From: a virus | Taxonomy: Duplodnaviria; Caudoviricetes | Strand: one strand, 5' to 3' | DNA: 33,735 nt | Virus record (IMG/VR): IMGVR_UViG_3300044267_002985 | Span: 1 to 33,735 of that record | Shown here: positions 5,070-33,735 of the stretch, one piece after another | How the letters are laid out: every line of letters begins with the position of its first letter | Numbering within the stretch: position 1 is the first letter of the stretch | Program-made: the position numbers and the translations under genes | The notes under the pieces: model-generated | Database searches by the model: none | What the model saw: only the letters and a program-made list of their open reading frames with translations | What the model was told of the DNA's origin: nothing

Positions 5070-5996
5070 ATGAGCGAAATCGCCACGGACTTCACTGCTG
5101 ATTCAGGGCAGACCGAATCATCTGGTTCGTCAGACGGATCTACAGACAAATCATTTCAAGATATGCCTGAAATGGGTCTGGGGATGCTTGAGACGGATAC
5201 GGACTCGGACCCTGTTGAAGCGTCGGAGCAGACCGATGGAGGAACGCAAACGCAACAACCCGCTAATGATAGCGGTAATCAATCAAACAATGATCTATCA
5301 GAGTTTGAAAAAGGTAGACGCGAAGCTGATCGTTACTTCCAACAGAAGAACGAAGCGTTTTTGGCTGAACGTAGACAGTTTGAAGAAGAGCGTAGAAACT
5401 ATCAGCAACAGCAACAACCGACGCAACCTCAACAGGGAGCGGATTTGGGAGATGCTGAAACGTTGCGACAAAGGGCGATGCAAGTTAACGACCCTGAACA
5501 GCAACGTGCGTTGATGGAACAAGCTGCAGGTATTGAGTATGTTGATAAGATGGTAGAAGATCGACTTGCATCTACATTAGAAAAGATGGGGTTGAACAAC
5601 TACCAACAAGATCGTCAGTTGTTTGCTAACATGGCAGAGCAACAACGATCATCACGAGAGTCCGAGTTAAAAGATCAGATTGAAGAAGCCAAAGGGTTGT
5701 TTGGTGAAGAATCACTAAAAGATGAATTAACTTTGCAGTTCATTACCAACAACAGGACTTTGCTTTCAACGGTAAATCCAGATACAGGTAAAAACTTTAC
5801 ACTGTCGGAGTTGGTAGGACGTTGGACGGGGAAACCTGCACAACAAGCACAACAAGCTCGTGACAATCAACGCACTCAAAGAAATGTAGCTAAGGCGGGA
5901 GCTTCTAATCGTGGGAGCACTTCTGCTATTAGAGATTCTTCAGGCGGTCCGATAAGTCAATCACAAGCTATTGCGGAAATCGCTTCAACTATGTGA
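5070..5996 (+). CDS. Capsid scaffolding protein (putative)
   Basis: Acidic disordered N-terminus and helical Q/E-rich body. Lies directly upstream of the capsid gene, with RBS AAGGAG. Confidence 0.7.
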   Translation: MSEIATDFTADSGQTESSGSSDGSTDKSFQDMPEMGLGMLETDTDSDPVEASEQTDGGTQTQQPANDSGNQSNNDLSEFEKGRREADRYFQQKNEAFLAERRQFEEERRNYQQQQQPTQPQQGADLGDAETLRQRAMQVNDPEQQRALMEQAAGIEYVDKMVEDRLASTLEKMGLNNYQQDRQLFANMAEQQRSSRESELKDQIEEAKGLFGEESLKDELTLQFITNNRTLLSTVNPDTGKNFTLSELVGRWTGKPAQQAQQARDNQRTQRNVAKAGASNRGSTSAIRDSSGGPISQSQAIAEIASTM

Positions 5997-22069: not shown

Positions 22070-22183
22070 ATGCCAATGGTTGGTGGAAAAAAATACGCAT
22101 ACACAAAAGCAGGTAAAGCTAAAGCTAAAAAAGCTAAAGAAAAAATGAAAGCAAAACCAAAGAGTAAACCACGAGGTAGGTAA
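22070..22183 (+). CDS. Small Lys-rich protein (37 aa, MPMVGGKKYAYTKAGKAKAKK...)
   Basis: Absent from the ORF track. Has an AGGAG RBS and a TAATG overlap with the next gene. Confidence 0.7.
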   Translation: MPMVGGKKYAYTKAGKAKAKKAKEKMKAKPKSKPRGR

Positions 22184-22473
22184 TGCCTGTAAAAAAAGAT
22201 TCTCGGTTAAAACGAGCAGGTGTTAGTGGCTACAATAAACCTCGTCGAACTCCGAGTCATAAAACTAAATCTCATGTTGTTGTTGCTAAGTCTGGTGGGA
22301 AAGTTAAGACAATTCGATTTGGTCAACAGGGAGCTAAGACAGCAGGTAAACCTAAGTCTGGTGAATCGCAAGCAATGAAAAGCAAACGATCAAGTTTTAA
22401 GGCTCGTCATTCTGCAAACATAAAACGTGGTCCGATGTCAGCAGCTTATTGGGCTAATAAGGTGAAATGGTAA
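22183..22473 (+). CDS. Small basic phage protein
   Basis: 96 aa, K/R-rich, with KTIRFGQQG...FKARH...SAAYWANKVKW, a motif I recognise from phage hypothetical proteins. Confidence 0.75.
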   Translation: MPVKKDSRLKRAGVSGYNKPRRTPSHKTKSHVVVAKSGGKVKTIRFGQQGAKTAGKPKSGESQAMKSKRSSFKARHSANIKRGPMSAAYWANKVKW

Positions 22474-22628
22474 TGGCGAAAAGAGGTTTATACGCAAACA
22501 TCCACGCTAAGAGAAAAAGGATTGCAAGTGGGTCTGGCGAGAAAATGAGAAAAGCGGGAGCCAAAGGTGCTCCATCAGCTAAAGCATTTAAACAATCTGC
22601 TAAGACTGCGAAGCGTAAAAAGAAATAA
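22473..22628 (+). CDS. Small basic phage protein (51 aa, MAKRGLYANIHAKRKRI...)
   Basis: Absent from the ORF track. TAATG overlap with the upstream gene; GLYANIHAKR motif. Confidence 0.75.
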   Translation: MAKRGLYANIHAKRKRIASGSGEKMRKAGAKGAPSAKAFKQSAKTAKRKKK

Positions 22629-23028: not shown

Positions 23029-23325
23029 ATGTTTGATTTTTTAAGCGATATACCCTCTGCAATAGTTGGTGGAGGAGCAGTAGTTGGTGCAGTTAGTGCT
23101 GTTGCAGTTAAGCAAGCCAAGAGAATATCCGACGCTAAAAAGGCTTGGAAAGAGGTGCATGACGCATTTATTTCTCTTAACCTTTTGAGCGACAAATATA
23201 GAATAGCTTTAGCCGACGACGGAAAAATAAGCCCAGAAGAATCCGAGTATCTTTGTCAGACTTTGGGACGGCTTGTAAAAGACACGCTTGAAGCAAGAGA
23301 AGCTCTAAATAAAGTCATTAGTTAA
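23029..23325 (+). CDS. Small membrane-anchored protein (holin-like candidate)
   Basis: One N-terminal hydrophobic helix and AAGGA RBS. Last gene of the late operon, convergent with the primase. Confidence 0.5.
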   Translation: MFDFLSDIPSAIVGGGAVVGAVSAVAVKQAKRISDAKKAWKEVHDAFISLNLLSDKYRIALADDGKISPEESEYLCQTLGRLVKDTLEAREALNKVIS

Positions 23326-25588
23326 TTCCTCGTTGATTCCTCTGTAGTAAACTTTGGCTTTCCTCATTAAGAGCAATCCCTTTATAGACTCGCATTCTCG
23401 CTGAACCTACGCGAGATGCTTTGTATCCATGTTCGGACATCGCTCGTCCAAACCAAACTGAACTCTGGTCTTCTCCTGTGTAGGCGTTGTATGCCTCGCG
23501 TAGATCGGTAACGCTGATCGAAAGTATATCATCGACTACACAGGAGGAGGAGATAAACTCAAGTAATGGATCTTGCTCCTCTCGGTAGCTTCTGGTCGCG
23601 TTGTCTACAGCGTCTGGTTGTATCAATCCTTCCTCACGATACATTGCAAAACCTCGCATCATCCAATTCAATATCCCAGACGATTCTGATTTTAACTTTG
23701 CAATAATCTCGTCCTTCTTACCTGCAACGGGGTGACCAGGAGTTCCAAATTTTACTCCAAACTCAATCAGGTGTAGTCGTCTCCATGTTCCATGTGTTGC
23801 ACCTGAGATTTCGGGTTTGTTATTTGTTGCTAATAGTATTTTGTATTTTGGTCGGAATTGAAAAAACTCCTTATGAAGGAATCGTGCGGTTTCAAGATCA
23901 CCGCTTACCGTACGCTTGATAACAGATTCGTCGAGCGTGGAACCTTTGTTTGTTTCACTCACCGTAACTAATCTTGATGAACGTAACATGGCAAGGTCAT
24001 TCCGTATGGATTCATTTCTCGACGACGATAAAAATGTATGGGCGGGAGCGTTGCTCAGATAGTCTCCCATAAGATAAGCCAACGCTTCCAACAATAATGA
24101 CTTACCATTTGCACCATCTCCAAACAAAATGAAAATTGCTTCTGCGGTCATGTCGCCAGTAAGCGAAAGACCAAGATATTTTTGTAGGTGACGGACAACT
24201 TTTTTGTCGGGTAATATTTGAGATAAAAATTCTTCCCAGTATGGACAAGTTGCTTCGGGGTTATATTTCATTCTTGAAACTTGAGTCAACCTATGGGTGG
24301 GATCAGGGTCAATCGCTTCTTGTTCAATTAAATCCAATGTTGTATTCGATGCGTTAAATAAATATAAATGTTTGTCGAGGTCATTGACGCTACTGACTAT
24401 AGACGGGTGCGATTCAGCAAGCGTGGTCATTGCTTTTATTTTTGGCAATGCTTCGGAAGCGTAGCTCCATTTCTCTGCTTTATCAACTCCCTGTTTATCG
24501 ACTACTCCCGTCTGCTCCTCCGCTCGTATAACTCGTGCAGTGTCGAGTGCCATTTCCGTTACGCGATTAGTCTGATCTTTTTCCCAACATACACCAGACC
24601 AGAGTTTCCATCCTTCTTCTGGGACATAGAGTATTTGTTTTCCGTATCTCGCAACTAATCTATCGCGGTTACCTGCGTCGGTTAGTGGTAGACCCGATGC
24701 CAATAGAGGAGCGTTGGCAGTAACTCCAATTTCAGGATCTATAGTTGATGGTGGAGGAGGCTCTGGTTCGTAACGCTCCATTGATTGAGATATTCTGTCA
24801 ATCTCCGTAGCGTCTAATGGAGGGTCGCAAAATCTCTGGTTATACTGGTGTAGCAATAATGATATCTCGTCGGAGTTCAAACCTCGACGACGTAACCCTC
24901 CCGCAACGGACGTTAGTTTAGAGTTGCGAGATCCTTCTGAAATTACTCGTGGGACTTCCTTTAATTCTGGTGTTGTTGGCACTCGTTCGTTTTGTGATTC
25001 TACAATATAACTATAGAGTTTGTCGTTTGTTACCGATAGGTTAATAACTGGAGTATCGAACGGTTCCAGAATCAACTCCCATTCGTACGATCCCATAACA
25101 TGGTTCGACGGTTCCGCTAATACGTATCCACCGTCGGATTTAACGTCAACTCCCTGTAGCGTTTCATTTTGCGAATGCAGTTTACCAGTGTATTCAATAT
25201 ATATGTGTGTCCCGCCTCCACCAGTTGTAGCCATTGGCGTTGAGTCAATAGGACCATACTCACGCTCAAGGTCAGACCAAGTTTCTTTTCCTCCCGATCT
25301 CTCGTCGATGTCTATAACATCTATTCCGCTAATCTCTCCAGTTCGGATACCGACGTTTGCGTAGGGTTGTTTTCTCCACCACTGAGTAATTCTTTCGATG
25401 TCGGTTGTTGCGTCGTTTAATCCGCTTATGCTAATTGGGTGTTTGCCTACGCTGTTGCAGTTGCTATGTCCACAACTACATTCGTTTTTAGTCGTAACAA
25501 AATGAATTGGAAAAACATACCATCCCATCTCCGCATATTTTATCGCAGAGGTTAATCTCGGATTTGATTTATCAGATGTCGTCAACAT
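23318..25588 (-). CDS. Primase-helicase (Prim-Pol + PriCT + D5/P4-family SF3 helicase)
   Basis: Prim-Pol motifs (GWYVFP, GKHP, NVGIRTG, VIDID, TGGGGTH), PriCT GSRNSKL, Walker A GDGANGKS, plus LATNNKP and WRRL. Confidence 0.92.
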   Translation of the reverse strand: MLTTSDKSNPRLTSAIKYAEMGWYVFPIHFVTTKNECSCGHSNCNSVGKHPISISGLNDATTDIERITQWWRKQPYANVGIRTGEISGIDVIDIDERSGGKETWSDLEREYGPIDSTPMATTGGGGTHIYIEYTGKLHSQNETLQGVDVKSDGGYVLAEPSNHVMGSYEWELILEPFDTPVINLSVTNDKLYSYIVESQNERVPTTPELKEVPRVISEGSRNSKLTSVAGGLRRRGLNSDEISLLLHQYNQRFCDPPLDATEIDRISQSMERYEPEPPPPSTIDPEIGVTANAPLLASGLPLTDAGNRDRLVARYGKQILYVPEEGWKLWSGVCWEKDQTNRVTEMALDTARVIRAEEQTGVVDKQGVDKAEKWSYASEALPKIKAMTTLAESHPSIVSSVNDLDKHLYLFNASNTTLDLIEQEAIDPDPTHRLTQVSRMKYNPEATCPYWEEFLSQILPDKKVVRHLQKYLGLSLTGDMTAEAIFILFGDGANGKSLLLEALAYLMGDYLSNAPAHTFLSSSRNESIRNDLAMLRSSRLVTVSETNKGSTLDESVIKRTVSGDLETARFLHKEFFQFRPKYKILLATNNKPEISGATHGTWRRLHLIEFGVKFGTPGHPVAGKKDEIIAKLKSESSGILNWMMRGFAMYREEGLIQPDAVDNATRSYREEQDPLLEFISSSCVVDDILSISVTDLREAYNAYTGEDQSSVWFGRAMSEHGYKASRVGSARMRVYKGIALNEESQSLLQRNQRGIN

Positions 25589-25949
25589 AAATTACAACCT
25601 CTATCCTCGGTTTAATCTTATCAATTATAAATGTATGGTGTAATGATTTTATATATCTCATCGTGTCGTCGGGTAACACTCCCGCTGTAACAAGACCATC
25701 CAATATCATTTTCTGAGCACCTCCCGCAACGTTGTCAGGATCTTTTCGTTTAGACTTACGATAGTGTGCAAATAAAATTGATACGGGTTTGTCTATTGGT
25801 TTTAATTCTTGGACTCTACACTCTAACGCTACAAGATTTGTGTTTGCTCGTTTTACTCGTGCATATTTTGAGTAATGAGATTTGGAAGCTGCAATGATCT
25901 CATTAATTGCGGGCAACTCACCTTGTAGCGTTAACGTTTGTTTTGTCAT
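25572..25949 (-). CDS. rusA: RusA-family Holliday junction resolvase
   Basis: DPDN...KMILDGLV.AGVLPDD catalytic pattern. ATG at 25949; the ORF track starts at the TTG at 25955. Confidence 0.8.
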   Translation of the reverse strand: MTKQTLTLQGELPAINEIIAASKSHYSKYARVKRANTNLVALECRVQELKPIDKPVSILFAHYRKSKRKDPDNVAGGAQKMILDGLVTAGVLPDDTMRYIKSLHHTFIIDKIKPRIEVVIYVDDI

Positions 25950-26016
25950 ATTCAACGCCCGTAGTTAATTATACGGGTCGTCGAATATAACAATTTTTAG
26001 AGTTTAGAGAAAGTGA

Positions 26017-26634
26017 TTAAAACGGCAATTCTTCTCCGTCAATACCATCAACGACATCCTGTTTGGCTTGCTCTGCTACAGGGTCGATACGTTCAGGTAT
26101 CCACTGGTCAAACTCCTCTGGACGGGCAATCCATTTTGCGATTCCCCATTTGGGAGCGTAGTTTGTACTTTTCCCCGCCTTGATCGGGATAGATCCCGTG
26201 ACGGTGACGACAGGAACTTTCGTCTTGTCTTGAGAGTTTTTGTGTGCTTGCCAAGCGTCCACGAGTTCGTCGAAAGCTCGACCAATCGTTAATCCCTGCT
26301 TGCCAAACTTACGAACCGATCCGTCGAAATCTCCACCAATCAATTTGACGGTGACTTCAAATCCTGGTTTGTGTTCGGGCGACGGTTGAGCGGGCATCCC
26401 GTCCTCTTGATGGTGCATAATGCTATCGGGACGGTTGTCGATAAATGCGGTGTAGCCGATAGCAGTGTTGCCAATATCTACGGCAAACGATGGAGACTCA
26501 ACTTCAATTTTTTCTGATGTCCATTCGCCATCCGCACCCTGTGTTCTCTCGACTGCAAAAAACCTACCTGCTCGTAGATCAAGGTCGAAACGTGGTAAGA
26601 ATTGTTGCGTTGTGTTTAAGTCTAAAAATCCCAT
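26017..26634 (-). CDS. Single-stranded DNA-binding protein (putative)
   Basis: Beta-rich, with an acidic C-terminus ending DGEELPF (SSB-type tail). Lies in the replication module. Confidence 0.6.
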   Translation of the reverse strand: MGFLDLNTTQQFLPRFDLDLRAGRFFAVERTQGADGEWTSEKIEVESPSFAVDIGNTAIGYTAFIDNRPDSIMHHQEDGMPAQPSPEHKPGFEVTVKLIGGDFDGSVRKFGKQGLTIGRAFDELVDAWQAHKNSQDKTKVPVVTVTGSIPIKAGKSTNYAPKWGIAKWIARPEEFDQWIPERIDPVAEQAKQDVVDGIDGEELPF

Positions 26635-26767
26635 TTTTTCGTTCTCTTTCTGTCGTTGACATGTTGTCGTTGACTGTTTTGGTTTTTGTAAAAAATAAAA
26701 GTCAAAAAAATCGTGGTCTATTTCACATAGAGCCTCAAAATTTGCAAGTGAAAACTTTTAGCCGTTT

Positions 26768-27862
26768 CTATTTCCCCTCCGTTTCGGCACTGAAAAATAA
26801 ATCTCCCTCTAATCGTTTGTCGATAATCTTTTTGTAGTCAGGGTTGAGTTCGATGAGTATCGCGGATCGGTTGTGTTTACCTGCTACTAATCCAGTTGTC
26901 CCTGATCCCGCAAATGGATCTAATATTGTATCGTTAGATTTCGTTGAAGCCAAAACCATTGGTAGTATAAGTTTCTCAGGGAAGGTAGCGAAATGTGCGT
27001 CTTTTAAATTTGCAGGGTTAACCTTCCAGACGGATCGTTTGTTTCTTGTTGCATAAGATTTTGTTAATCCCGTATGTGGCGATAACCCACTTCCCTCGTT
27101 ATGGTATTTGCCATTAGTTCGATCCCGTGTTCCCCAATCAGTTGCCTGCTCCTTAATTGCCTCGTTATCATAATAATAATTCCTATTTTTACTCAACAGA
27201 AATATATACTCGTGCGATTTAGTGCAACGATCCCTAACTGCTTCTGGCATAGGGTTTGGCTTATGCCAAATAATATCTTGTCGGAGATACCATCCGTCGT
27301 TGCGTAACGCAAAGGCTACCATCCACGGTATGCCGATCAAATCTTTTTCTTTTAGGTTTTTTAATTTATTGTTGCGTTTAGCACTTACACTTGGTAAGTC
27401 TTGATCTGTTTTGCTAACAGTTTGCTTCGGATAACTTTTACCAACGCTTGGCCTATAATTATAATAACTATCTCCAAGATTCAACCAGAGCGTTCCGTCG
27501 TCGGATAACGTTTCTCTTACCTCACGAAATACCTCGACAAGATTTGCAACATATTCCTCTGGCGTTTCCTCTAATCCTATTTGCTCGTCCTCTCGGACTG
27601 CTCCGCATAATGGACAAACCGATTTGTAGATAGCGTCACCTACTACACTACCAACATCATTCATGTCACCGTGTCCAGTTATATTTGCGTCCGTTTGTTT
27701 GTTCAATCTTTTGTGTGGACAACTCGGATCTCCACCAATCCACGATGCGGTTCCGTAGTCTCGCAGTCCGTAATACGGTGGAGAGGTTATGGTAGATTGA
27801 ATTGACCTCCTCGGTATTTCTTTCAGTAACTTTCGGCAGTTACCGATTTTTATTTGTATCAT
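26768..27862 (-). CDS. DNA methyltransferase, beta class (N4-C/N6-A family)
   Basis: Catalytic TSPPYY near the N-terminus; HFATFP and DPFAGSGTT SAM-binding motifs near the C-terminus. Confidence 0.92.
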   Translation of the reverse strand: MIQIKIGNCRKLLKEIPRRSIQSTITSPPYYGLRDYGTASWIGGDPSCPHKRLNKQTDANITGHGDMNDVGSVVGDAIYKSVCPLCGAVREDEQIGLEETPEEYVANLVEVFREVRETLSDDGTLWLNLGDSYYNYRPSVGKSYPKQTVSKTDQDLPSVSAKRNNKLKNLKEKDLIGIPWMVAFALRNDGWYLRQDIIWHKPNPMPEAVRDRCTKSHEYIFLLSKNRNYYYDNEAIKEQATDWGTRDRTNGKYHNEGSGLSPHTGLTKSYATRNKRSVWKVNPANLKDAHFATFPEKLILPMVLASTKSNDTILDPFAGSGTTGLVAGKHNRSAILIELNPDYKKIIDKRLEGDLFFSAETEGK

Positions 27863-27905
27863 TTTTTAGCTGTCCTTGACGGTTGTCTTTGACGATTTGT
27901 TCACG

Positions 27906-28121
27906 TTAATCTTTTACATACCAGTGTTCAATTAATCCGTTTCGTAAATTCTCTGAAGTGAATTTTATTATCTCACTCAGGACTACAATGTCTTCTATTA
28001 CCTTTTCATTGACTAACGCAGGTTTTTTTCTTTTCTGGTCTTTCTCTGTTAATTCTTGTTTTATTTGGCTTGCTTGATCCATTATGTCGGCAGTTGCTTT
28101 TAACATTTCTATTCTATTCAT
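27906..28121 (-). CDS. Hypothetical protein
   Basis: 71 aa, preceded by the AACCGAGGA RBS. Confidence 0.7.
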   Translation of the reverse strand: MNRIEMLKATADIMDQASQIKQELTEKDQKRKKPALVNEKVIEDIVVLSEIIKFTSENLRNGLIEHWYVKD

Positions 28122-28142
28122 TTTAGTTTCCTCGGTTAATGA

Positions 28143-28239
28143 TGGGCGGTGCTCGGATTTACCAGACGTTTTCTGGCTCCCCTAATCCTACGCAAAGTTG
28201 AGAGTCTTCCCCCAAGCAACTCTACGATTGCACCGCCCA
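28143..28239 (-). ncRNA. Putative structured ncRNA (three-way junction)
   Basis: 10-bp closing helix TGGGCGGTGC/GCACCGCCCA enclosing two hairpins. G-U pairs form only on the - strand, and the element fills most of an intergenic gap. Confidence 0.6.
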
Positions 28240-28244
28240 ATAAT

Positions 28245-28460
28245 TTAATCTATCTCGTCGATACGTTGTGCGATTTGGTTTGTCCTATCAGTGATTAGTT
28301 GAAAATATTTTTCGTAAAAAGTTTTGTAGTCATCATTGACGGCTGTCGGAATTGTTTTTTTAAGATCACGAATTAATTCTGCGATGCTCGTTACGTTGTT
28401 TTGTAATGATCCGTATTTTGATTGGTGTAACATCTCCTCTATTTCGTCTCGTGCTTTCAT
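28245..28460 (-). CDS. Hypothetical protein
   Basis: 71 aa, GAGGTG RBS, ATGA overlap with the upstream gene. Confidence 0.7.
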   Translation of the reverse strand: MKARDEIEEMLHQSKYGSLQNNVTSIAELIRDLKKTIPTAVNDDYKTFYEKYFQLITDRTNQIAQRIDEID

Positions 28461-28855
28461 ACCGTCACCTCTTCGGTTTTTAATGATTCGTAAACTCCCT
28501 CCTGGATTTCCAAACTTATATCGACGGGGTGAATTTTTAATTCGTCAAACTGTATTGGACGGTTTTCAATGTTTCGTTTTATAAGTTTAACCAATCCATC
28601 CATAACGTCTTTTTCCAACAATCCAATCGTATTGTATTCTTGTAATACCTCAGTTCCCATTTTCTTTTCATGTAATACTCGCATAACCTCTACTGCTGAC
28701 AACCAGTGGATACTCGTGCGTATTGCACGTTTTTGTTCGTTGTCAAATTGATCTGCTTTGTATTCCGTTTCCATTTTAATTATCCTTGTTTTTATTAATT
28801 TGATCTTGGTCAAGGCACCTACGATTTTGTTCTTGTCTCCATGTTTCGGTTGCAA
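28457..28855 (-). CDS. Hypothetical protein (start uncertain)
   Basis: Long ORF in the operon. The true start may be the internal METEYK ATG (~28774), which removes the overlap with the upstream gene. Confidence 0.6.
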   Translation of the reverse strand: MQPKHGDKNKIVGALTKIKLIKTRIIKMETEYKADQFDNEQKRAIRTSIHWLSAVEVMRVLHEKKMGTEVLQEYNTIGLLEKDVMDGLVKLIKRNIENRPIQFDELKIHPVDISLEIQEGVYESLKTEEVTV

Positions 28856-28973
28856 AATCGTTCGCTACTTTTATAACCGTATACATATAGTCGTAATTTT
28901 TTGCGATGGATTGTGGATTGATATTGCTGACCATCGCTGATGCAAACTTAACTGTCATCTCCAAATGTGTCAT
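28776..28973 (-). CDS. Hypothetical protein
   Basis: 65 aa, preceded by the AACCGAGGAG RBS. Confidence 0.7.
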   Translation of the reverse strand: MTHLEMTVKFASAMVSNINPQSIAKNYDYMYTVIKVANDFATETWRQEQNRRCLDQDQINKNKDN

Positions 28974-28974
28974 G

Positions 28975-29505
28975 TTATTTCTCCTCGGTTAATTCTGAGA
29001 TCATATAGTTTATACCTTCTTCTGGTGTTAATGACGCGACTTTAACAAGTGTTTTTTCGGCTGAGTTGTCGATCAAAGATTTAATAACTTTTTCCCAAAC
29101 TTTGGCAACGAACTCCTCCTGAGTGCCAGTGTATTGGTTCATGTTGGTGTAGTGTTCGTAATGGAAATCGTCATACCTATCAGTTGGTTCCATACTCTGC
29201 GATTCGCTTAATACTGTTATCAATGTGTTGATATCTCCAACAGTTAATGGCCCAACCTCCTCTCCATTGTGTATGGAGAGTTTCGCTTCTAAACTGTCAG
29301 GATCGAAAGGAGGTTTTTTTCTGCATATGTTGCTAACATATATATTATTGATTATAGCAGTTGTAGCTCCGTCTTCGGCTAATGCGTTGTGGTCAACGTC
29401 CTCGCTGAAGTCTACCTTTATAACGCTGACGTGGCTGTCGAACCATTCGCCAGTGTTGGTTTCGTCTTTGAGTTTCTTTGTGAGTTGTTCGGTGAAGTCG
29501 GTCAT
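28975..29505 (-). CDS. Hypothetical protein, first gene after the second promoter block
   Basis: Start reassigned to the ATG at 29505 (MTDFTEQL), which follows AACCGAGGA. Confidence 0.7.
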   Translation of the reverse strand: MTDFTEQLTKKLKDETNTGEWFDSHVSVIKVDFSEDVDHNALAEDGATTAIINNIYVSNICRKKPPFDPDSLEAKLSIHNGEEVGPLTVGDINTLITVLSESQSMEPTDRYDDFHYEHYTNMNQYTGTQEEFVAKVWEKVIKSLIDNSAEKTLVKVASLTPEEGINYMISELTEEK

Positions 29506-29525
29506 TTTTTCCTCGGTTCGGTTTG

Positions 29526-29644
29526 GGTTTCTCTCTCTCAACTATATATAATAACGCTAATTTTCCTTGTCTTGTCAAGTGCTACACAATGTTTTTTTTA
29601 GTCGGTATCCCGATTTCTATAGTATATTTCTTTGTATCTGTCAA
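29526..29644 (-). promoter_or_regulatory. Tandem sigma70-like promoters plus conserved leader
   Basis: TTGACA(29639-44)-17-TATAGA(29616-21), and TTGACA(29573-78) with TATTAT at a long 19-bp spacing. Followed by leader TATATAGTTGAGAGAGAGAAACC. Confidence 0.7.
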
Positions 29645-29652
29645 GCGTAAAA

Positions 29653-29799
29653 TTAGTAATAATCACTGCTCCCAAAGACGAGTAATTCTATTAGCGGGGG
29701 GAGGATCGTAGCACAAAAAAAACAAATAGCTACAAACAATACACTACGCAAAATCCGCTCTACTTTACCTGGCTCGTCAAAACGTTTTGTCATTCTCAT
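29653..29799 (-). CDS. Small single-pass membrane protein (48 aa, MRMTKRFDEPGKVERILRSVLFVAICFFCATILPPLIELLVFGSSDYY)
   Basis: Absent from the ORF track. GGGAG RBS 7 nt upstream, hydrophobic core, fills the intergenic gap. Confidence 0.6.
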   Translation of the reverse strand: MRMTKRFDEPGKVERILRSVLFVAICFFCATILPPLIELLVFGSSDYY

Positions 29800-29803
29800 T
29801 TTA

Positions 29804-30289
29804 TTACTCCCAATTAATTTCATAGTGAGGAACTTTTTTTGGATTTGGAAACAATATTCGCTTTAAAAAAGATTGTTGTGTTCCATCCTCCTTTGTGTAA
29901 TTAAAATATTCATTTTGTTGCACATCTTTTCTAAATTGATAGACAGAGGCAGTTGCATGGTCGCAAAAAAATCCATTAGATAAATCCCATTCCTTATAAT
30001 ACACCTCAAAAAATCTTTTTTCCTCGTCTGGATCTTGACCTCTATCATAATATAGTTCGATTTGAAATTTGTTTGGTATTACTTCGGTTATATATTCAAA
30101 GACATCTTTTTTCTTTGCATGGTAGCTAACATTAAGCGTTTCAGAAAATTCGTCATGGATCATAACCCGTGACAGAAAAGATTTGAAAGCATTTAAGTTA
30201 ATAAATTTATATTTTATAATCTCGACATTTACAAAATCAAAATCGTGACCTTTTTCTATTGTCAGTTCGTAGTATCCAGAAATATTCAT
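29804..30289 (-). CDS. Hypothetical protein (AT-rich)
   Basis: 161 aa, AAGGAG RBS, ATGA overlap. Confidence 0.7.
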   Translation of the reverse strand: MNISGYYELTIEKGHDFDFVNVEIIKYKFINLNAFKSFLSRVMIHDEFSETLNVSYHAKKKDVFEYITEVIPNKFQIELYYDRGQDPDEEKRFFEVYYKEWDLSNGFFCDHATASVYQFRKDVQQNEYFNYTKEDGTQQSFLKRILFPNPKKVPHYEINWE

Positions 30290-30753
30290 TTGGAATTCTC
30301 CTTGTAGGTTCGGTTCCCCTCTAATTGGTCAATGGCTTTTTGGTAAGACGATTTTATTTGGTGAACTCGTTGTCTACTTACACCAACAGCATTTGCAATA
30401 GATGCTTGTGAATGTTTTCCTTCCATCAACAAATTGATAACTGCTTTTCTCCGATCAGAAAATCTTCGTGGTCTTGGTAATCCTCGTGCCATAACTAATT
30501 TTGAAAGTTGAAATCTTGAGACTCTCGTCAACTGAGACAGTTTGGTTAAGCTCATTCCTTTCAAATAAAATTCTTCAATATTTTGTCGGAAGAAATATTT
30601 TAATTCGTTAGTTTCTTCGTCGTAACGACCTGCCGAAAATGGATCAAAAAAATTATTAAACATTTTTCGCAGAGTTACATGAGGAGTAGTTAAAGCGTAT
30701 TGAAAAAATTCCTCGCATTGTTTTTCGTTAGTCCAGTTTGAATTAAAATTCAT
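30286..30753 (-). CDS. Helix-turn-helix DNA-binding protein
   Basis: C-terminal HTH SQASIANAVGVSRQRVHQI, and a possible second HTH SLTKLSQLTRVSRFQLSKLV. Confidence 0.7.
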   Translation of the reverse strand: MNFNSNWTNEKQCEEFFQYALTTPHVTLRKMFNNFFDPFSAGRYDEETNELKYFFRQNIEEFYLKGMSLTKLSQLTRVSRFQLSKLVMARGLPRPRRFSDRRKAVINLLMEGKHSQASIANAVGVSRQRVHQIKSSYQKAIDQLEGNRTYKENSK

Positions 30754-30959
30754 TCTATTTCATCTCCTAACAAATCCTCGATCATAGCCATGTCGTGAGG
30801 ATATATTTCTGATGTAACATCAATTTTTCCAAAAAAAACTTTTACATTATCGGCATACACACTCTCACCTGGAGAGTAAAAATCTGGTGAGATGTTTTCT
30901 CCCGCTTCTGTTCCAGTTGCGGTGATCGTTATTTTTATATCGGTTTCTATTTCTAACAT
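30750..30959 (-). CDS. Hypothetical acidic protein
   Basis: 69 aa, GAGGTG RBS, overlaps both neighbours. Confidence 0.7.
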   Translation of the reverse strand: MLEIETDIKITITATGTEAGENISPDFYSPGESVYADNVKVFFGKIDVTSEIYPHDMAMIEDLLGDEIE

Positions 30960-31114
30960 TAAAACACCTCTCTATTCTCGTCGAAATGTATTTCGATCTG
31001 ATCGTTGTTGTAATTAATTTCAACCACTTCATAGTCTGAGCAGTTTTCATTTAGTGCAACGACGTTAGTTTTTTTTAAAAAGCAAACTAAAACTTTTGCT
31101 AATAATTTTTTCAT
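30959..31114 (-). CDS. Small hypothetical protein (51 aa, MKKLLAKVLVCFLKK...)
   Basis: Absent from the ORF track. Starts right after the repeat RBS and has a TAATG overlap with the next gene. Confidence 0.65.
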   Translation of the reverse strand: MKKLLAKVLVCFLKKTNVVALNENCSDYEVVEINYNNDQIEIHFDENREVF

Positions 31115-31174
31115 TTGAGTCTCCTCGGTTAGTGTTGGGAGAGAGGAGCGGTTCCTCCCTCCCGTTTTATTTGT
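31115..31174 (-). repeat. Intergenic hairpin+RBS repeat, copy 1
   Basis: AAATAAAACGGGAGGGAGGAACCGCTCCTCTCTCCCAACACTAACCGAGGAGACTCAA-ATG. Confidence 0.95.
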
Positions 31175-31450
31175 TTATTTTAAGTAGTTCCTTTTGAAGT
31201 TCTTTATTTTTGCAATTTCTTCTTTGTAATATTTTAAATTCCTTTTATCACCATCGTCTCTTGCGTCACCAATCCACCTTGGAAATGCCTCGTCAAGTAG
31301 ATATTCAACCCCGTCTCTAATATCTTCGATTGTTGTATTCTCGACATTAACATCTTTGTTATCAATACCTGATTCTGGATCTCTCATCAACTCATCTTGC
31401 AAGTGATCAATTTTCATTGCAGCTTCTAAAATTTCTTTATGGGTTTTCAT
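31175..31450 (-). CDS. Hypothetical protein (cassette)
   Basis: 91 aa, bounded exactly by repeat copies. Confidence 0.8.
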   Translation of the reverse strand: MKTHKEILEAAMKIDHLQDELMRDPESGIDNKDVNVENTTIEDIRDGVEYLLDEAFPRWIGDARDDGDKRNLKYYKEEIAKIKNFKRNYLK

Positions 31451-31507
31451 TTTGAATCTCCTCGGTTAGTGTTGGGAGAGAGGAACGGTTCCTCCCTCCC
31501 GTTTTAT
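31451..31507 (-). repeat. Intergenic hairpin+RBS repeat, copy 2
   Basis: Near-identical to copy 1 and fills the whole intergenic space. Confidence 0.95.
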
Positions 31508-31675
31508 TTATTCTTCGTCTCGCTCTGGTTCTGAAAAACGAGCCATTGAATTTTTTGCAGTGGTAAAATATTTTGGATCTACCTCACGGTTCCCCGCAAG
31601 TTTTCCGAGCATGTGACTTGTAAATTCTTCGGGCGAACATTCTGCCAAAAACTTTTCTTCTTTTTTGTTTTCCAT
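31508..31675 (-). CDS. Small hypothetical protein (55 aa, MENKKEEKF...)
   Basis: Start reassigned to the ATG at 31675, after CCGAGGA. Confidence 0.65.
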   Translation of the reverse strand: MENKKEEKFLAECSPEEFTSHMLGKLAGNREVDPKYFTTAKNSMARFSEPERDEE

Positions 31676-31676
31676 T

Positions 31677-31820
31677 TTAGTTTTCCTCGGCTTCAGTTTC
31701 GTCTTCGTCGTCGTCAAAATTAAAATCCACGATCAAATGTTTGTCCATCCATTCCTGACTCGCTCCTGTTTCCTCTTGCAATTTCTTTTTGAATGCGTCT
31801 GCAAATTTCTTGTCTACCAT
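31677..31820 (-). CDS. Small acidic protein (47 aa, MVDKKFADAFKKKLQEETGASQEWMDKHLIVDFNFDDDEDETEAEEN)
   Basis: Absent from the ORF track. Follows the RBS of repeat copy 3 and resembles the N-terminus of 28975-29505. Confidence 0.75.
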   Translation of the reverse strand: MVDKKFADAFKKKLQEETGASQEWMDKHLIVDFNFDDDEDETEAEEN

Positions 31821-31881
31821 TTTGAATCTCCTCGGTTAAATGTTGGGAGAGAGGAACGATTCCTCCCTCCCGTTTTATTTG
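31821..31881 (-). repeat. Intergenic hairpin+RBS repeat, copy 3
   Basis: Near-identical to the other copies. Confidence 0.95.
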
Positions 31882-32235
31882 TTAGTCTCTGATTAAATCA
31901 GAATCTTTTATTACCCAACCTTCCCATCCTTTAAACCTATCCTTCATACATGGAACCAATTCTTTGTAAACGTCTTCTACTGCATCGTTGACGAAATTTG
32001 CTGAAGCGACCGAGCAACCGTTGTATATTTCTGGGTAATTTAAGATTGCTACGTTGGTCGGGTAATATTTCATCAACGCTCTTTCCGCAACTTCATACAT
32101 TGCATTTTCTAAATTTTCTTTATTTCGTTCTTTTATCATATCTTCGATTTCGTTGAGTTTGAAATTATTTTCAATAAATTTTTTCAACGTCGAAGTTCTT
32201 TTAAGTTCTTTTCTGATTTCTTTGAAACTTTTCAT
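31882..32235 (-). CDS. Hypothetical protein (cassette, 117 aa)
   Basis: Start reassigned to the ATG at 32235 (MKSFKEI), after the repeat RBS. Confidence 0.8.
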   Translation of the reverse strand: MKSFKEIRKELKRTSTLKKFIENNFKLNEIEDMIKERNKENLENAMYEVAERALMKYYPTNVAILNYPEIYNGCSVASANFVNDAVEDVYKELVPCMKDRFKGWEGWVIKDSDLIRD

Positions 32236-32297
32236 TTGAGTCTCCTCGGTTAGTGTTGGGAGAGAGGAACGATTCCTCCCTCCCGTTTTATTTTTCT
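32236..32297 (-). repeat. Intergenic hairpin+RBS repeat, copy 4
   Basis: Near-identical to the other copies. Confidence 0.95.
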
Positions 32298-32603
32298 TTA
32301 GAAGTTGTAATTGTTTTTTACTTTGTTCCAATCAACATCACCTGCTTCTTTAATCCATTCATACATCAAGCATCTTTTTTCTTCTAATTGTCTTTCTATA
32401 AAAAGCGTCATGCCTTCTTTTACTTGATTATCAAGAATATCTATGTAAGGATGTCCTAATTCTTCGTGATATATTTTTTTACCCATAATTTCTCCCTTGA
32501 TCGTATGGAAATCGTTTTCTGCGGTGAACTTTCCAGAGGCGACCTTGACGTTCCAGTTTCCGTTTGATCCGTCTATTTTGAAGTTGAAGTTTGTTTTATC
32601 CAT
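32298..32603 (-). CDS. Hypothetical protein, first gene of the early operon
   Basis: 101 aa, preceded by TAACCGAGGAGATTCAAA (the RBS half of the repeat). Confidence 0.8.
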   Translation of the reverse strand: MDKTNFNFKIDGSNGNWNVKVASGKFTAENDFHTIKGEIMGKKIYHEELGHPYIDILDNQVKEGMTLFIERQLEEKRCLMYEWIKEAGDVDWNKVKNNYNF

Positions 32604-32626
32604 TTTGAATCTCCTCGGTTATTAGT

Positions 32627-32758
32627 GGTTTCTCTCTCTCAACTATATATATAATACAAAACATTCTTCATCTTGTCAAGGGTTTTGCAATGTTTCTTAT
32701 ACGATTGTTATAGCTGAAAAAACCGATTTTCTATAACACATTTCTTTTGTTTTGTCAA
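32627..32758 (-). promoter_or_regulatory. Tandem sigma70-like early promoters plus conserved leader
   Basis: TTGACA(32674-79)-17-TATTAT(32651-56) and TTGACA(32753-58)-17-TATAGA(32730-35). Same leader as the block at 29.5 kb. Confidence 0.8.
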
Positions 32759-32822
32759 GGGTTAAATGAACTATAAATATAGCCTTGAATCTTGGTGGTT
32801 AAATAGTTATATTCATTACCCA

Positions 32823-33068
32823 ATGAGTAAACAATTATTGGTAGAGTTGTCGAACGGAAGACAGAGAAATATTTATTCTGGCAATGTGACTGATATAATT
32901 ATTAGTCCAGATTTAAAACGGGAATCGAACAAAATAATTTTACGCCAGAATATTTCTGGTGCATTTTATAATTCGGAATCGTTAGAGCAGATCGAACTTA
33001 GCGAAGATACAAACGTAACATCAATCATAGATTGGTGGAGAGATAACGAGTTGCATAATATTTTATAA
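32823..33068 (+). CDS. Divergent hypothetical protein (81 aa; alternative start at 32766)
   Basis: TTGAAT(32785)-17-TATATT(32808) lies just upstream of the ATG at 32823; no SD is visible. Confidence 0.55.
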   Translation: MSKQLLVELSNGRQRNIYSGNVTDIIISPDLKRESNKIILRQNISGAFYNSESLEQIELSEDTNVTSIIDWWRDNELHNIL

Positions 33069-33079
33069 TTAACTATCTT
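33051..33079 (+). promoter_or_regulatory. Sigma70-like promoter of the putative sRNA
   Basis: TTGCAT(33051-56)-17 bp-TATCTT(33074-79). Confidence 0.55.
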
Positions 33080-33084
33080 GGGTT

Positions 33085-33162
33085 ATCATCTCTCTCAACA
33101 AGACATGATACCTCCTCGGTGTCCCTCGCATTGCTCCTCGGTTATGCGGGGGACACTTTTTT
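33085..33162 (+). ncRNA. Putative trans-acting antisense sRNA against the early-gene RBS and leader
   Basis: Has its own promoter, two hairpins and a U6 tail. Carries TCTCTCTCAAC, CCTCCTCGGT and CTCCTCGGTTA, complementary to repeated early mRNA motifs. Confidence 0.65.
33119..33162 (+). terminator. Intrinsic terminator
   Basis: 13-bp stem GTGTCCCTCGCAT/ATGCGGGGGACAC (one G-U), 12-nt loop, followed by TTTTTT. Confidence 0.8.
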
Positions 33163-33175
33163 GCCTAAACACATA

Positions 33176-33451
33176 GACCAGTAAAAAGACTTGCGACCAG
33201 TATTTTTAGCTTTACTCGTCTACCTTAACTATTTTAAAAAACAGGTCGTTGTAAAAAAGTGGTCAAGTAAAAAAGTAAATTCGTATAAGTTTTACTAACG
33301 AAGAAAAAACACATTTCTATACGTAGCGTATAATTTACCTTGGATACCTTGGAGTAAATAAATAAGTAGTATAAAAAACAAAAACTTAAAGTAGACCAGT
33401 AAAGAAAAAAATACCCTACACTTACCCTACCATACCCTACCATTACTGGTC
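33176..33451. repeat. AT-rich non-coding region with short iterated motifs (candidate origin or packaging region)
   Basis: GACCAGTA at 33176, 33195, 33394 and inverted at 33444; TACCCTAC at 33412, 33423, 33433. Confidence 0.45.
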
Positions 33452-33507
33452 ACCTTGCTTTTTGATATTGATAAATCTATATTAGTAAAATAAAACGGAG
33501 GATGTCA

Positions 33508-33735
33508 TTGATCGAATATAAATTGAAATCTGCTTGGCCTAACAAGCGTTACCCTAATATTAGTTTTGATGAATGGGCTTGCAGTCATTCGGGTAAGTGC
33601 GTTGTTGATAAAGACTTTCTTGATCGGTTGCAAGCGTTGCGAACATTACTGGGGTTCCCTTTAATAATTACTTCTGGCTATCGGTCGGAGACTCATCCAG
33701 TAGAAGCTAAGAAAAAAAAATTGGGTGCTCATACA
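33508..33735 (+). CDS. Peptidase M15A-family endolysin (3' truncated by window)
   Basis: Absent from the ORF track. GGAGG then TTG start (in-frame ATG at 33502). Translation includes DEWAC...FLDRLQALR...PLIITSGYRS..H...GAH. Confidence 0.8.
   Translation, partial: MIEYKLKSAWPNKRYPNISFDEWACSHSGKCVVDKDFLDRLQALRTLLGFPLIITSGYRSETHPVEAKKKKLGAHT

Follow-up and report, generated by a model that had tools for sequence, protein, structure and literature searches.

A predicted small RNA mirroring the ribosome-binding tag and transcript leader of early genes in an uncultured marine podovirus-like phage

The DNA analysed here (hereafter the window) is the whole 33,735-nt record of an uncultured, podovirus-like marine phage. 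Positions 33085-33162 of its + strand form a real, conserved, RNA-like unit that is predicted to be a small RNA. The reading retained, to which we give a probability of roughly 0.6, is that this unit is the gene of a trans-acting small RNA that would damp the translation of the early cassette genes as a group. A + strand, trans-acting antisense role is partly supported by conservation, by strand-specific wobble pairs, by target discrimination, by the repressor slot that the unit occupies and by one analogous unit in the distant relative L160.

The rightward (late) genes of the window (255-23325) encode portal, capsid, head-closure and tail-fibre-assembly proteins. The leftward (early/replication) genes (23318-32603) encode a prim-pol primase, RusA, a methylase, an HTH protein and the products of many small unknown ORFs. 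Three very basic small ORFs (37, 96 and 53 aa) lie in tandem at 22070-22628 (+), and two of the three match PHROG families of unknown function. An M15 peptidase gene begins at the right end of the window; in the close relative L003, a further stretch of about 2 kb leads on to the terminase. The 42 window proteins scanned and the four ORFs scanned from this L003 stretch yielded no recognisable integrase or Cro/C1 repressor. No antirepressor family was found among the 42 proteins compared with PHROGs or the 24 compared with Pfam; most small early ORFs had no match and could include a divergent one. The closest isolated phage shares only 33% terminase identity. Related terminase (49%) and capsid (48%) genes are carried by a Latescibacterota genome, which hints at a host in this phylum and nothing beyond, the prophage capsid protein being only 48% identical.

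The unit is composed of a 5' hairpin, a single-stranded linker and, at 33118-33162 (+), an intrinsic-terminator-like hairpin with a U-tract, the G-U pairs of which work on the + strand only. Its fold was predicted at -31.2 kcal/mol (z -6.57; 0/200 shuffles), in agreement with the two-hairpin, U-tract-ended unit proposed in a preliminary description made from the letters alone. A putative sigma-70-type promoter (33051-33079, +) overlaps the end of ORF81. As described before, its hexamers (33051-33056 and 33074-33079) are present, 17 nt apart and conserved; but they fit the consensus at just 7/12 positions, and the site was not among the 28 retrieved by a promoter scan, the total of which was at the shuffle level (mean 24.7). 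The 5' end of the RNA is therefore putative. In a longer form, starting at 33080 or earlier, hairpin 1 is extended and part of seed 2 (see below) is sequestered. The sole RNA run (X1, with a word share of 0.06) gave nine contigs on 27000-33735 and none on 33000-33200, a blank that counts neither for nor against the RNA. The Rfam search, proposed earlier as a check of novelty, returned no family: there was no match at the gathering score in the window, and the three matches in 32500-33500 were at chance level (E up to 10) and to unrelated families.

Three seeds were distinguished in the RNA. Seed 1 (33089-33099, +) covers the stem top and the 7-nt loop of hairpin 1 and is complementary to the early 5' leader. 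Its exact 11-nt complement recurs only at two places on the - strand, 32633-32643 (the putative 5' end of the first early transcript; promoter 32679-32651) and 29532-29542 (the leader of the second early promoter block; -35 at 29578-29573). The duplex was calculated at -17.5 kcal/mol, with opening costs of 3.7 and 3.2. The core of seed 2 (33110-33117, +) is an anti-Shine-Dalgarno stretch, unpaired in the 78-nt form (fully so at 33111-33117). The earlier placement of seed 2 mostly in the linker holds for this core, but not for the next 3 nt (33118-33120), which are polymorphic: they lie in the stem of the terminator and are missing from L002/L007, L003/L005 and L011 (three of the four aligned alleles), while no deletion is listed there in the contigs of runs X2 and X3. 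The conserved portion of seed 2 is thus the anti-SD octamer only. Seed 3 (33134-33144, +), at the top of the terminator hairpin, is invariant in all alleles. It is the exact 11-nt complement of the RBS tag found at six early genes. The 8-nt core occurs 13 times on the + strand and never on the - strand. Seed 3 had been placed mostly in the terminator loop, but the minimum free energy structure leaves only CCUC and U33143 unpaired; the remainder forms a weak apical helix, with an opening cost of about 3.2 kcal/mol. The CCUC of the loop and the CCUCCUC of the linker were unpaired at 0.97-1.0.

All motifs of the preliminary description were found in place, and the complements of seeds 1 and 3 were exact. 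Only 1 in 20,000 dinucleotide shuffles of the RNA held at least 9 nt of both complements, and none of 269,268 78-nt windows taken from other phage loci did. The seeds stand in the reverse of the order seen in the promoter block and are separated by unrelated sequence. Cofolding with the first early leader engaged seed 1 alone; the two seeds cannot pair colinearly, as had been pointed out.

The six RBS tags with an 11-nt match to seed 3 all lie on the - strand, at 32611-32621 (ORF 32298-32603), 32242-32252 (ORF 31882-32235), 31828-31838 (ORF 31677-31820), 31458-31468 (ORF 31175-31450), 31121-31131 (ORF 30959-31114) and 28981-28991 (ORF 28776-28973). The shorter matches reported earlier at 28129-28138 (10 nt; ORF 27906-28121) and 29510-29518 (9 nt; ORF 28975-29505) were recovered, and a variant that had been missed, with one G-U pair, was added at 31684-31692 (ORF 31508-31675). 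The 9-nt match at 25604-25612 (-) had been assigned to a position just upstream of the primase. It belongs to the coding sequence of RusA, some 17 nt ahead of the primase ATG, which has a separate SD closer by; it is a doubtful target. The possibility that the tag is the extended SD of the host was discarded, given the standard 16S tail of the genome with related prophages and the rarity of the tag in the candidate host phylum (0-8 occurrences before ATG per genome in 101 genomes).

Pairing of the RNA with the start regions was scored with opening energies, using our own ViennaRNA approximation and not IntaRNA. Energies of -10.1 to -13.5 kcal/mol were obtained at 10 of the 18 leftward starts; none of the 13 rightward (late) starts reached -10, the best being at -7.1 kcal/mol. 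A ranking of ungapped helices over 43 starts agreed with this scoring, and its 12 best were all at leftward starts. In both rankings the start of the ORF ending at 28457 was placed 3-6 nt off, with its RBS inside the scored region. The ranking over phage start regions that had been suggested as a check thus confined strong pairing to leftward starts. When both anti-SD cores were fixed and the rest was shuffled, only 1/300 trials equalled the observed pairing, which argues that the non-SD half matters. The starts of the SSB-like, methylase, RusA and HTH genes were not among the predicted targets. The proposal of an antisense RNA against the whole early/replication regulon therefore has to be narrowed to the cassette set, with the primase doubtful.

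Four copies of a 65-nt cassette junction lie on the - strand within 31108-32293 (at 31108, 31445, 31816 and 32229), each with an 11-bp hairpin on the mRNA strand followed by the RBS tag. The early genes of relatives differ at these junctions (13 copies in three genomes) and at the promoter blocks (8 copies). Across the eight promoter blocks of the three genomes, the leader does not vary (11/11 columns) and the 9-nt RBS tag is always present, its column count of 3/9 being an artefact of a 1-nt difference in the linker; the promoter spacer (6/17) and the leader-tag linker (1/7) of the same blocks vary. Selection on the two words that match the RNA would fit this pattern better than blanket homogenisation. 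The tags lie in recombining repeats, and their uniformity may in part be homogenisation.

Other features of the early region were recorded. Each early promoter block (32651-32759 and 29550-29645, -) contains promoter-like sites with a perfect -35 as a tandem pair, spaced by about 70-80 nt. In the junction hairpin (31108-31172, 31445-31509, 31816-31880 and 32229-32293, -), an SD-like 5' arm is locked by the 3' arm, a G-U pair works on the mRNA strand and an A-rich stretch precedes the hairpin. Together with 3 further nt, the 3' arm is similar to seed 1, and 11/12 positions could pair with the early leader. Two junction copies of L005 precede a promoter instead of an RBS. The hairpin is possibly a processing or stabilising element.

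For conservation, four distinct alleles were aligned (the window, L007, L005 and L011), and contigs of the two runs X2 and X3 were added. Seeds 1 and 3, the fold and the promoter hexamers are retained in three related sequences while the flanks drift. Compared with L011, the most distant allele, the 78-nt RNA has two substitutions and one 3-nt deletion; the flanks (ORF81 end, spacer and downstream tract) match at 71/86, 13/17, 85/98 and 185/241 positions. In the contigs of X2 and X3, 2 of the 11 listed variant positions and no listed indel fall within the RNA. The -10 hexamer is identical in 4/4 alleles, the -35 has one change in L011, and the spacing of 17 nt is kept as the spacer and the ORF end diverge. 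One substitution in the RNA (C33090T) alters an internal mismatch and keeps the pairing of seed 1 by G-U; the other replaces a U-A pair by U-G, a pairing possible on the + strand alone. Over the 26 pairs in the four alleles, 100% of the 95 cells can pair, with one one-sided and no two-sided (compensatory) change. Seeds and tags do not vary within the close clade. The distribution of the RNA appears narrow, the RNA model having found no homologue outside this clade (6 matches in 164 sources). Pattern and protein scans of viral contigs recovered only a few close contigs.

The unit stands in a slot occupied by a repressor gene in relatives. In L092, L099, L100 and L013 (~60-71% terminase identity), a rightward Cro/C1-type HTH gene (PF13443) lies between the early block and the peptidase gene (L092:8418-8636, L099:7503-7721, L100:8488-8700 and L013:561-794). 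Its counterpart in the window is ORF81 plus the RNA. ORF81 (32823-33068, +) encodes an unknown beta-rich protein and is nearly leaderless, with a promoter-like site in front (32785-32813). No family was found for it; its atlas match was at 0.76, with no fold match at E 0.001 or better. Like ORF81, the HTH genes of L092, L099 and L100 appear (nearly) leaderless and back to back with early promoters. A similar small gene, followed by a repeat tract, was seen by eye in the slot of G002. Elsewhere in this relative (L251, ~5400-5520, reverse complement), a stretch between the late and early blocks resembles the 3' part of a tRNA and is a possible attachment site or tRNA gene. Downstream of the RNA in the window, an AT-rich tract (33163-33501; 69%) without a called gene contains an 8-nt repeat in three direct copies and one inverted copy. 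Tracts of a similar type, with different repeats, precede the M15 peptidase gene of relatives. This tract is likely a replication origin, used by the prim-pol primase.

A second unit of the same design was found by eye, in one lineage. L160 (46% terminase identity) has a promoter-like site, a hairpin, a linker and a terminator on the + strand (L160:6381-6520) ahead of the same peptidase gene, with relatives at L161:523-660, L165:639-775 and L159:1180-1320. The L160 tag differs from that of the window and is longer; it is common to three early starts (2563, 3634 and 4323 on the - strand). The L160 linker is predicted to form a 17-nt duplex with its own tag that reaches the start codon. Pairing was at -17.4 to -17.9 with its own three tags, at -3.2 to -10.5 with six other starts of its own (the terminase start was misplaced in this accessibility-corrected scoring) and at -4.1 to -12.6 with the ten tagged starts of the window. 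With the anti-SD core fixed, 3/500 shuffles did as well. In L161 and L165 the promoter and first hairpin are shared with the L160 unit (76% over 83 nt) and the linker is changed. Specificity is not reciprocal: for the window RNA, pairing with the L160 tags (-10.2 to -12.5) is roughly as strong as with its own. One L092 start also gave -12.0 with this RNA, and the L092 locus had no match to the RNA model. The window tag is present as single copies in L092 and L099, and no RNA of this kind was found in either.

Scans of relatives for mirror units were of limited sensitivity. The exact-word scan recovered the window clade and missed L160; a looser scan missed both and gave noise. L149, L061, L145 and L064 have strongly tagged early genes and no mirror unit by the exact 10-mer test, which also missed L160. 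The exact-word matches of L149 and L061 were rejected as mirror units, being the cassette junctions themselves. These four contigs contain arrays of 10-12 repeats of about 100 nt (L149:669-6456, L061:350-6014, L145 and L064), in which two hairpins and a central palindrome are followed by an RBS. The repeats separate short leftward genes and gene content differs among the contigs, as in an integron-like or PeSL-like cassette array. In L107 (9210-9304, +), the ends of two 43-nt repeats are complementary, with one wobble, to the RBS tag of three leftward genes; with no clear terminator, they are a weak lead to another candidate mirror unit. In L132 (2170-2275, +), a strong terminator follows three short repeats, of which two form hairpins whose 5' arms are C-rich.

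The following mechanism is proposed. Host RNA polymerase would produce the RNA from the modest promoter of the unit, as the 3' end of ORF81 transcripts, or in both ways. Contact with the SD would begin at the CCUC exposed in the terminator loop; opening of the weak apical helix would then let pairing spread into the phage-specific half and block loading of the 30S subunit. Seed 1 would be a separate site that captures the very beginning of every primary early transcript, with seed 2 as a generic anti-SD helper. Each seed would act on its own, in the manner of the two C-rich motifs of RsaE as presented in the available part of PMC6158497. As early messages turned over, the stable RNA would accumulate and exert a delayed negative feedback on the early genes, from the slot where relatives hold a Cro/C1-type repressor. 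If the RNA regulates, a brake on the lytic cycle is modestly favoured over immunity because no integrase or repressor was recognised. A wider proposal is that an RNA-addressed regulon has replaced the Cro/C1-type protein repressor, that tag-bearing junctions enrol cassettes and that unrelated mirror RNAs have arisen more than once in the family; taken jointly, these three points are tentative and stand slightly below even odds.

Other explanations were weighed against the trans-acting RNA. The unit might be only the terminator or 3' UTR of ORF81, shielding the origin-like tract from read-through, its words being leftovers of duplicated repeats without action in trans. The unit does lie directly behind ORF81 and ahead of the repeat tract, in an early region rich in shuffled repeats, and the G33080A allele retains the extended stem that only a longer transcript would have. 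We nevertheless consider this explanation unlikely. Leftovers of a promoter block do not account for seeds that stand in reversed order and are separated by unrelated sequence; drift would be expected in the loop of a plain terminator, whereas seeds 1 and 3 are fixed between diverging flanks; a terminator needs neither the 5' hairpin nor the kept hexamers; and an independent mirror exists in L160. An origin of the RNA as a 3' UTR is in itself compatible with a trans-acting small RNA. It is less probable still that the RNA is real and acts mainly through seed 2 as a generic anti-SD on host messages, or through seed 1 as a stabiliser of early transcripts. The one genome with related prophages has a 16S anti-SD core that the conserved stretch of seed 2 matches, and seed 1 would bind at the putative 5' end of the transcripts. 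Activation through blocked 5'-3' decay has reportedly been observed for RoxS and was counted for the stabiliser. Generic action is at odds with seed 3, which runs 5-6 nt past the SD with an exact fit to a phage tag that is rare before ATG in the candidate host phylum. Stabilisation is at odds with an 11-bp duplex over the SD, which should block initiation, as is established for anti-SD sRNAs in the available part of PMC6158497.

The two remaining explanations use the - strand. A - strand RNA could present the tag in a 12-nt loop as a decoy for an RBS-reading protein or nuclease, CsrB-like or RegB-like. This strand also folds (z -4.22, against -6.57 for the + strand, which has the U-tract) and leaves the tag unpaired in the loop, and T4 RegB is a precedent in which a shared SD motif marks early mRNAs for a protein (PMC3014915, as far as its available part goes). 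Read as the - strand, however, the stem contains a C-A mismatch and loses a pair through the L011 change, and an A-tract at the 5' end takes the place of the U-tract; no RegB- or CsrA-like match was found in the 42 proteins scanned. A decoy is accordingly quite improbable. Finally, the motifs could be the ribosome-binding sites of short - strand ORFs, an outcome that the preliminary description had named as fatal to the antisense idea. An ATG does follow both RBS-like copies in the window. One of these ORFs has 20, 16, 6 and 30 codons in the four alleles, with its ATG only 2 nt past the tag; the other has 3 codons, and its ATG is ACG in L011 and in the X2 and X3 contigs. Since the - strand ORFs range between 6 and 30 codons or have lost the ATG, this explanation was removed as largely refuted, and its remaining chance is very small.

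The trans-acting RNA was compared with known systems as they are presented in the available portions of the cited papers. The c4 RNA of P1/P7 is phage-encoded, about 77 nt long, and acts in trans on phage mRNA around an RBS through loop seeds; it is processed and has one target operon, ant (PMC12197685, PMC8546580). The window RNA resembles c4 in its size, its phage origin and its loop seeds predicted to pair in trans around phage RBSs. It differs from the c4 of these accounts by its roughly nine start regions with a common tag, its separate divergent unit, the lack of a recognised antirepressor and of an Rfam match. The CI RNA of P4 is processed from the transcript that it controls, between seqA and seqC, and acts by premature termination (PMC4825925). 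Here too, a small RNA is predicted to pair with the leader at the 5' end of an early/replication transcript of its own phage; but it is on the + strand and all targets are on the - strand, the nearest about 450 nt away, unlike the CI arrangement described. The mRNA-strand hairpins of the window have no U-tract, and termination at them, if any, would be factor-dependent. RNAs of the RsaE/RoxS type are host metabolic regulators of Firmicutes with C-rich seeds each able to act alone (PMC6158497). The window RNA likewise has repeated C-rich seeds complementary to the SD, one in a stem-loop and one in a single-stranded linker; it has no sequence or Rfam relation to those described, and its targets are genes of the encoding phage with a private SD extension.

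T4 RegB is a protein nuclease that requires ribosomal protein S1 and shuts off early mRNAs (PMC3014915, available part). An extended SD motif common to early genes, through which one factor could inactivate the class, is found in both cases; in the window the motif reader would be RNA. The SAS/ESAS of cluster K mycobacteriophages are repeated start-linked tags with an upstream inverted repeat; in the available part of that paper it is left open whether the binder is RNA or protein, and rare copies are in the opposite orientation (PMC3203893). In T4-type phages, PeSL cassettes are promoter/stem-loop cassettes found where small early genes shuffle (PMC2839356). Both are unrelated in sequence to the window, and no complementary small RNA is named in the available parts of either paper (PMC3203893, PMC2839356). 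As far as the available descriptions go, the phage antisense RNAs c4, CI, sar, OOP and aQ each control one phage gene or operon. Unlike the cis-encoded sar, OOP and aQ, the window RNA has no conserved ORF on the opposite strand, and its matches of 9-11 nt are at distant sites. The unit belongs to none of c4, CI, RsaE/RoxS or RegB by Rfam, target or gene arrangement. The analogy first drawn with c4 and CI is thus kept as a functional likeness and not as membership in those families. No phage RNA mirroring a tag of its own early genes was found in the literature searched, most subscription papers and the large structured-RNA screens being outside this search. A supplementary table of 38 uncharacterised sRNAs in PMC12197685 may bear on novelty.

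Class-wide shut-off of early messages is known through a protein, T4 RegB (PMC3014915, in its available part). If the proposed role is true, one RNA that reads a tag in mobile cassette junctions would be an RNA-only timing of a whole early gene set. Newly shuffled-in cassettes would come at once under a small RNA that mirrors both the tag and the transcript leader. This would offer an answer to the purpose of repeated start-associated sequences in phages.
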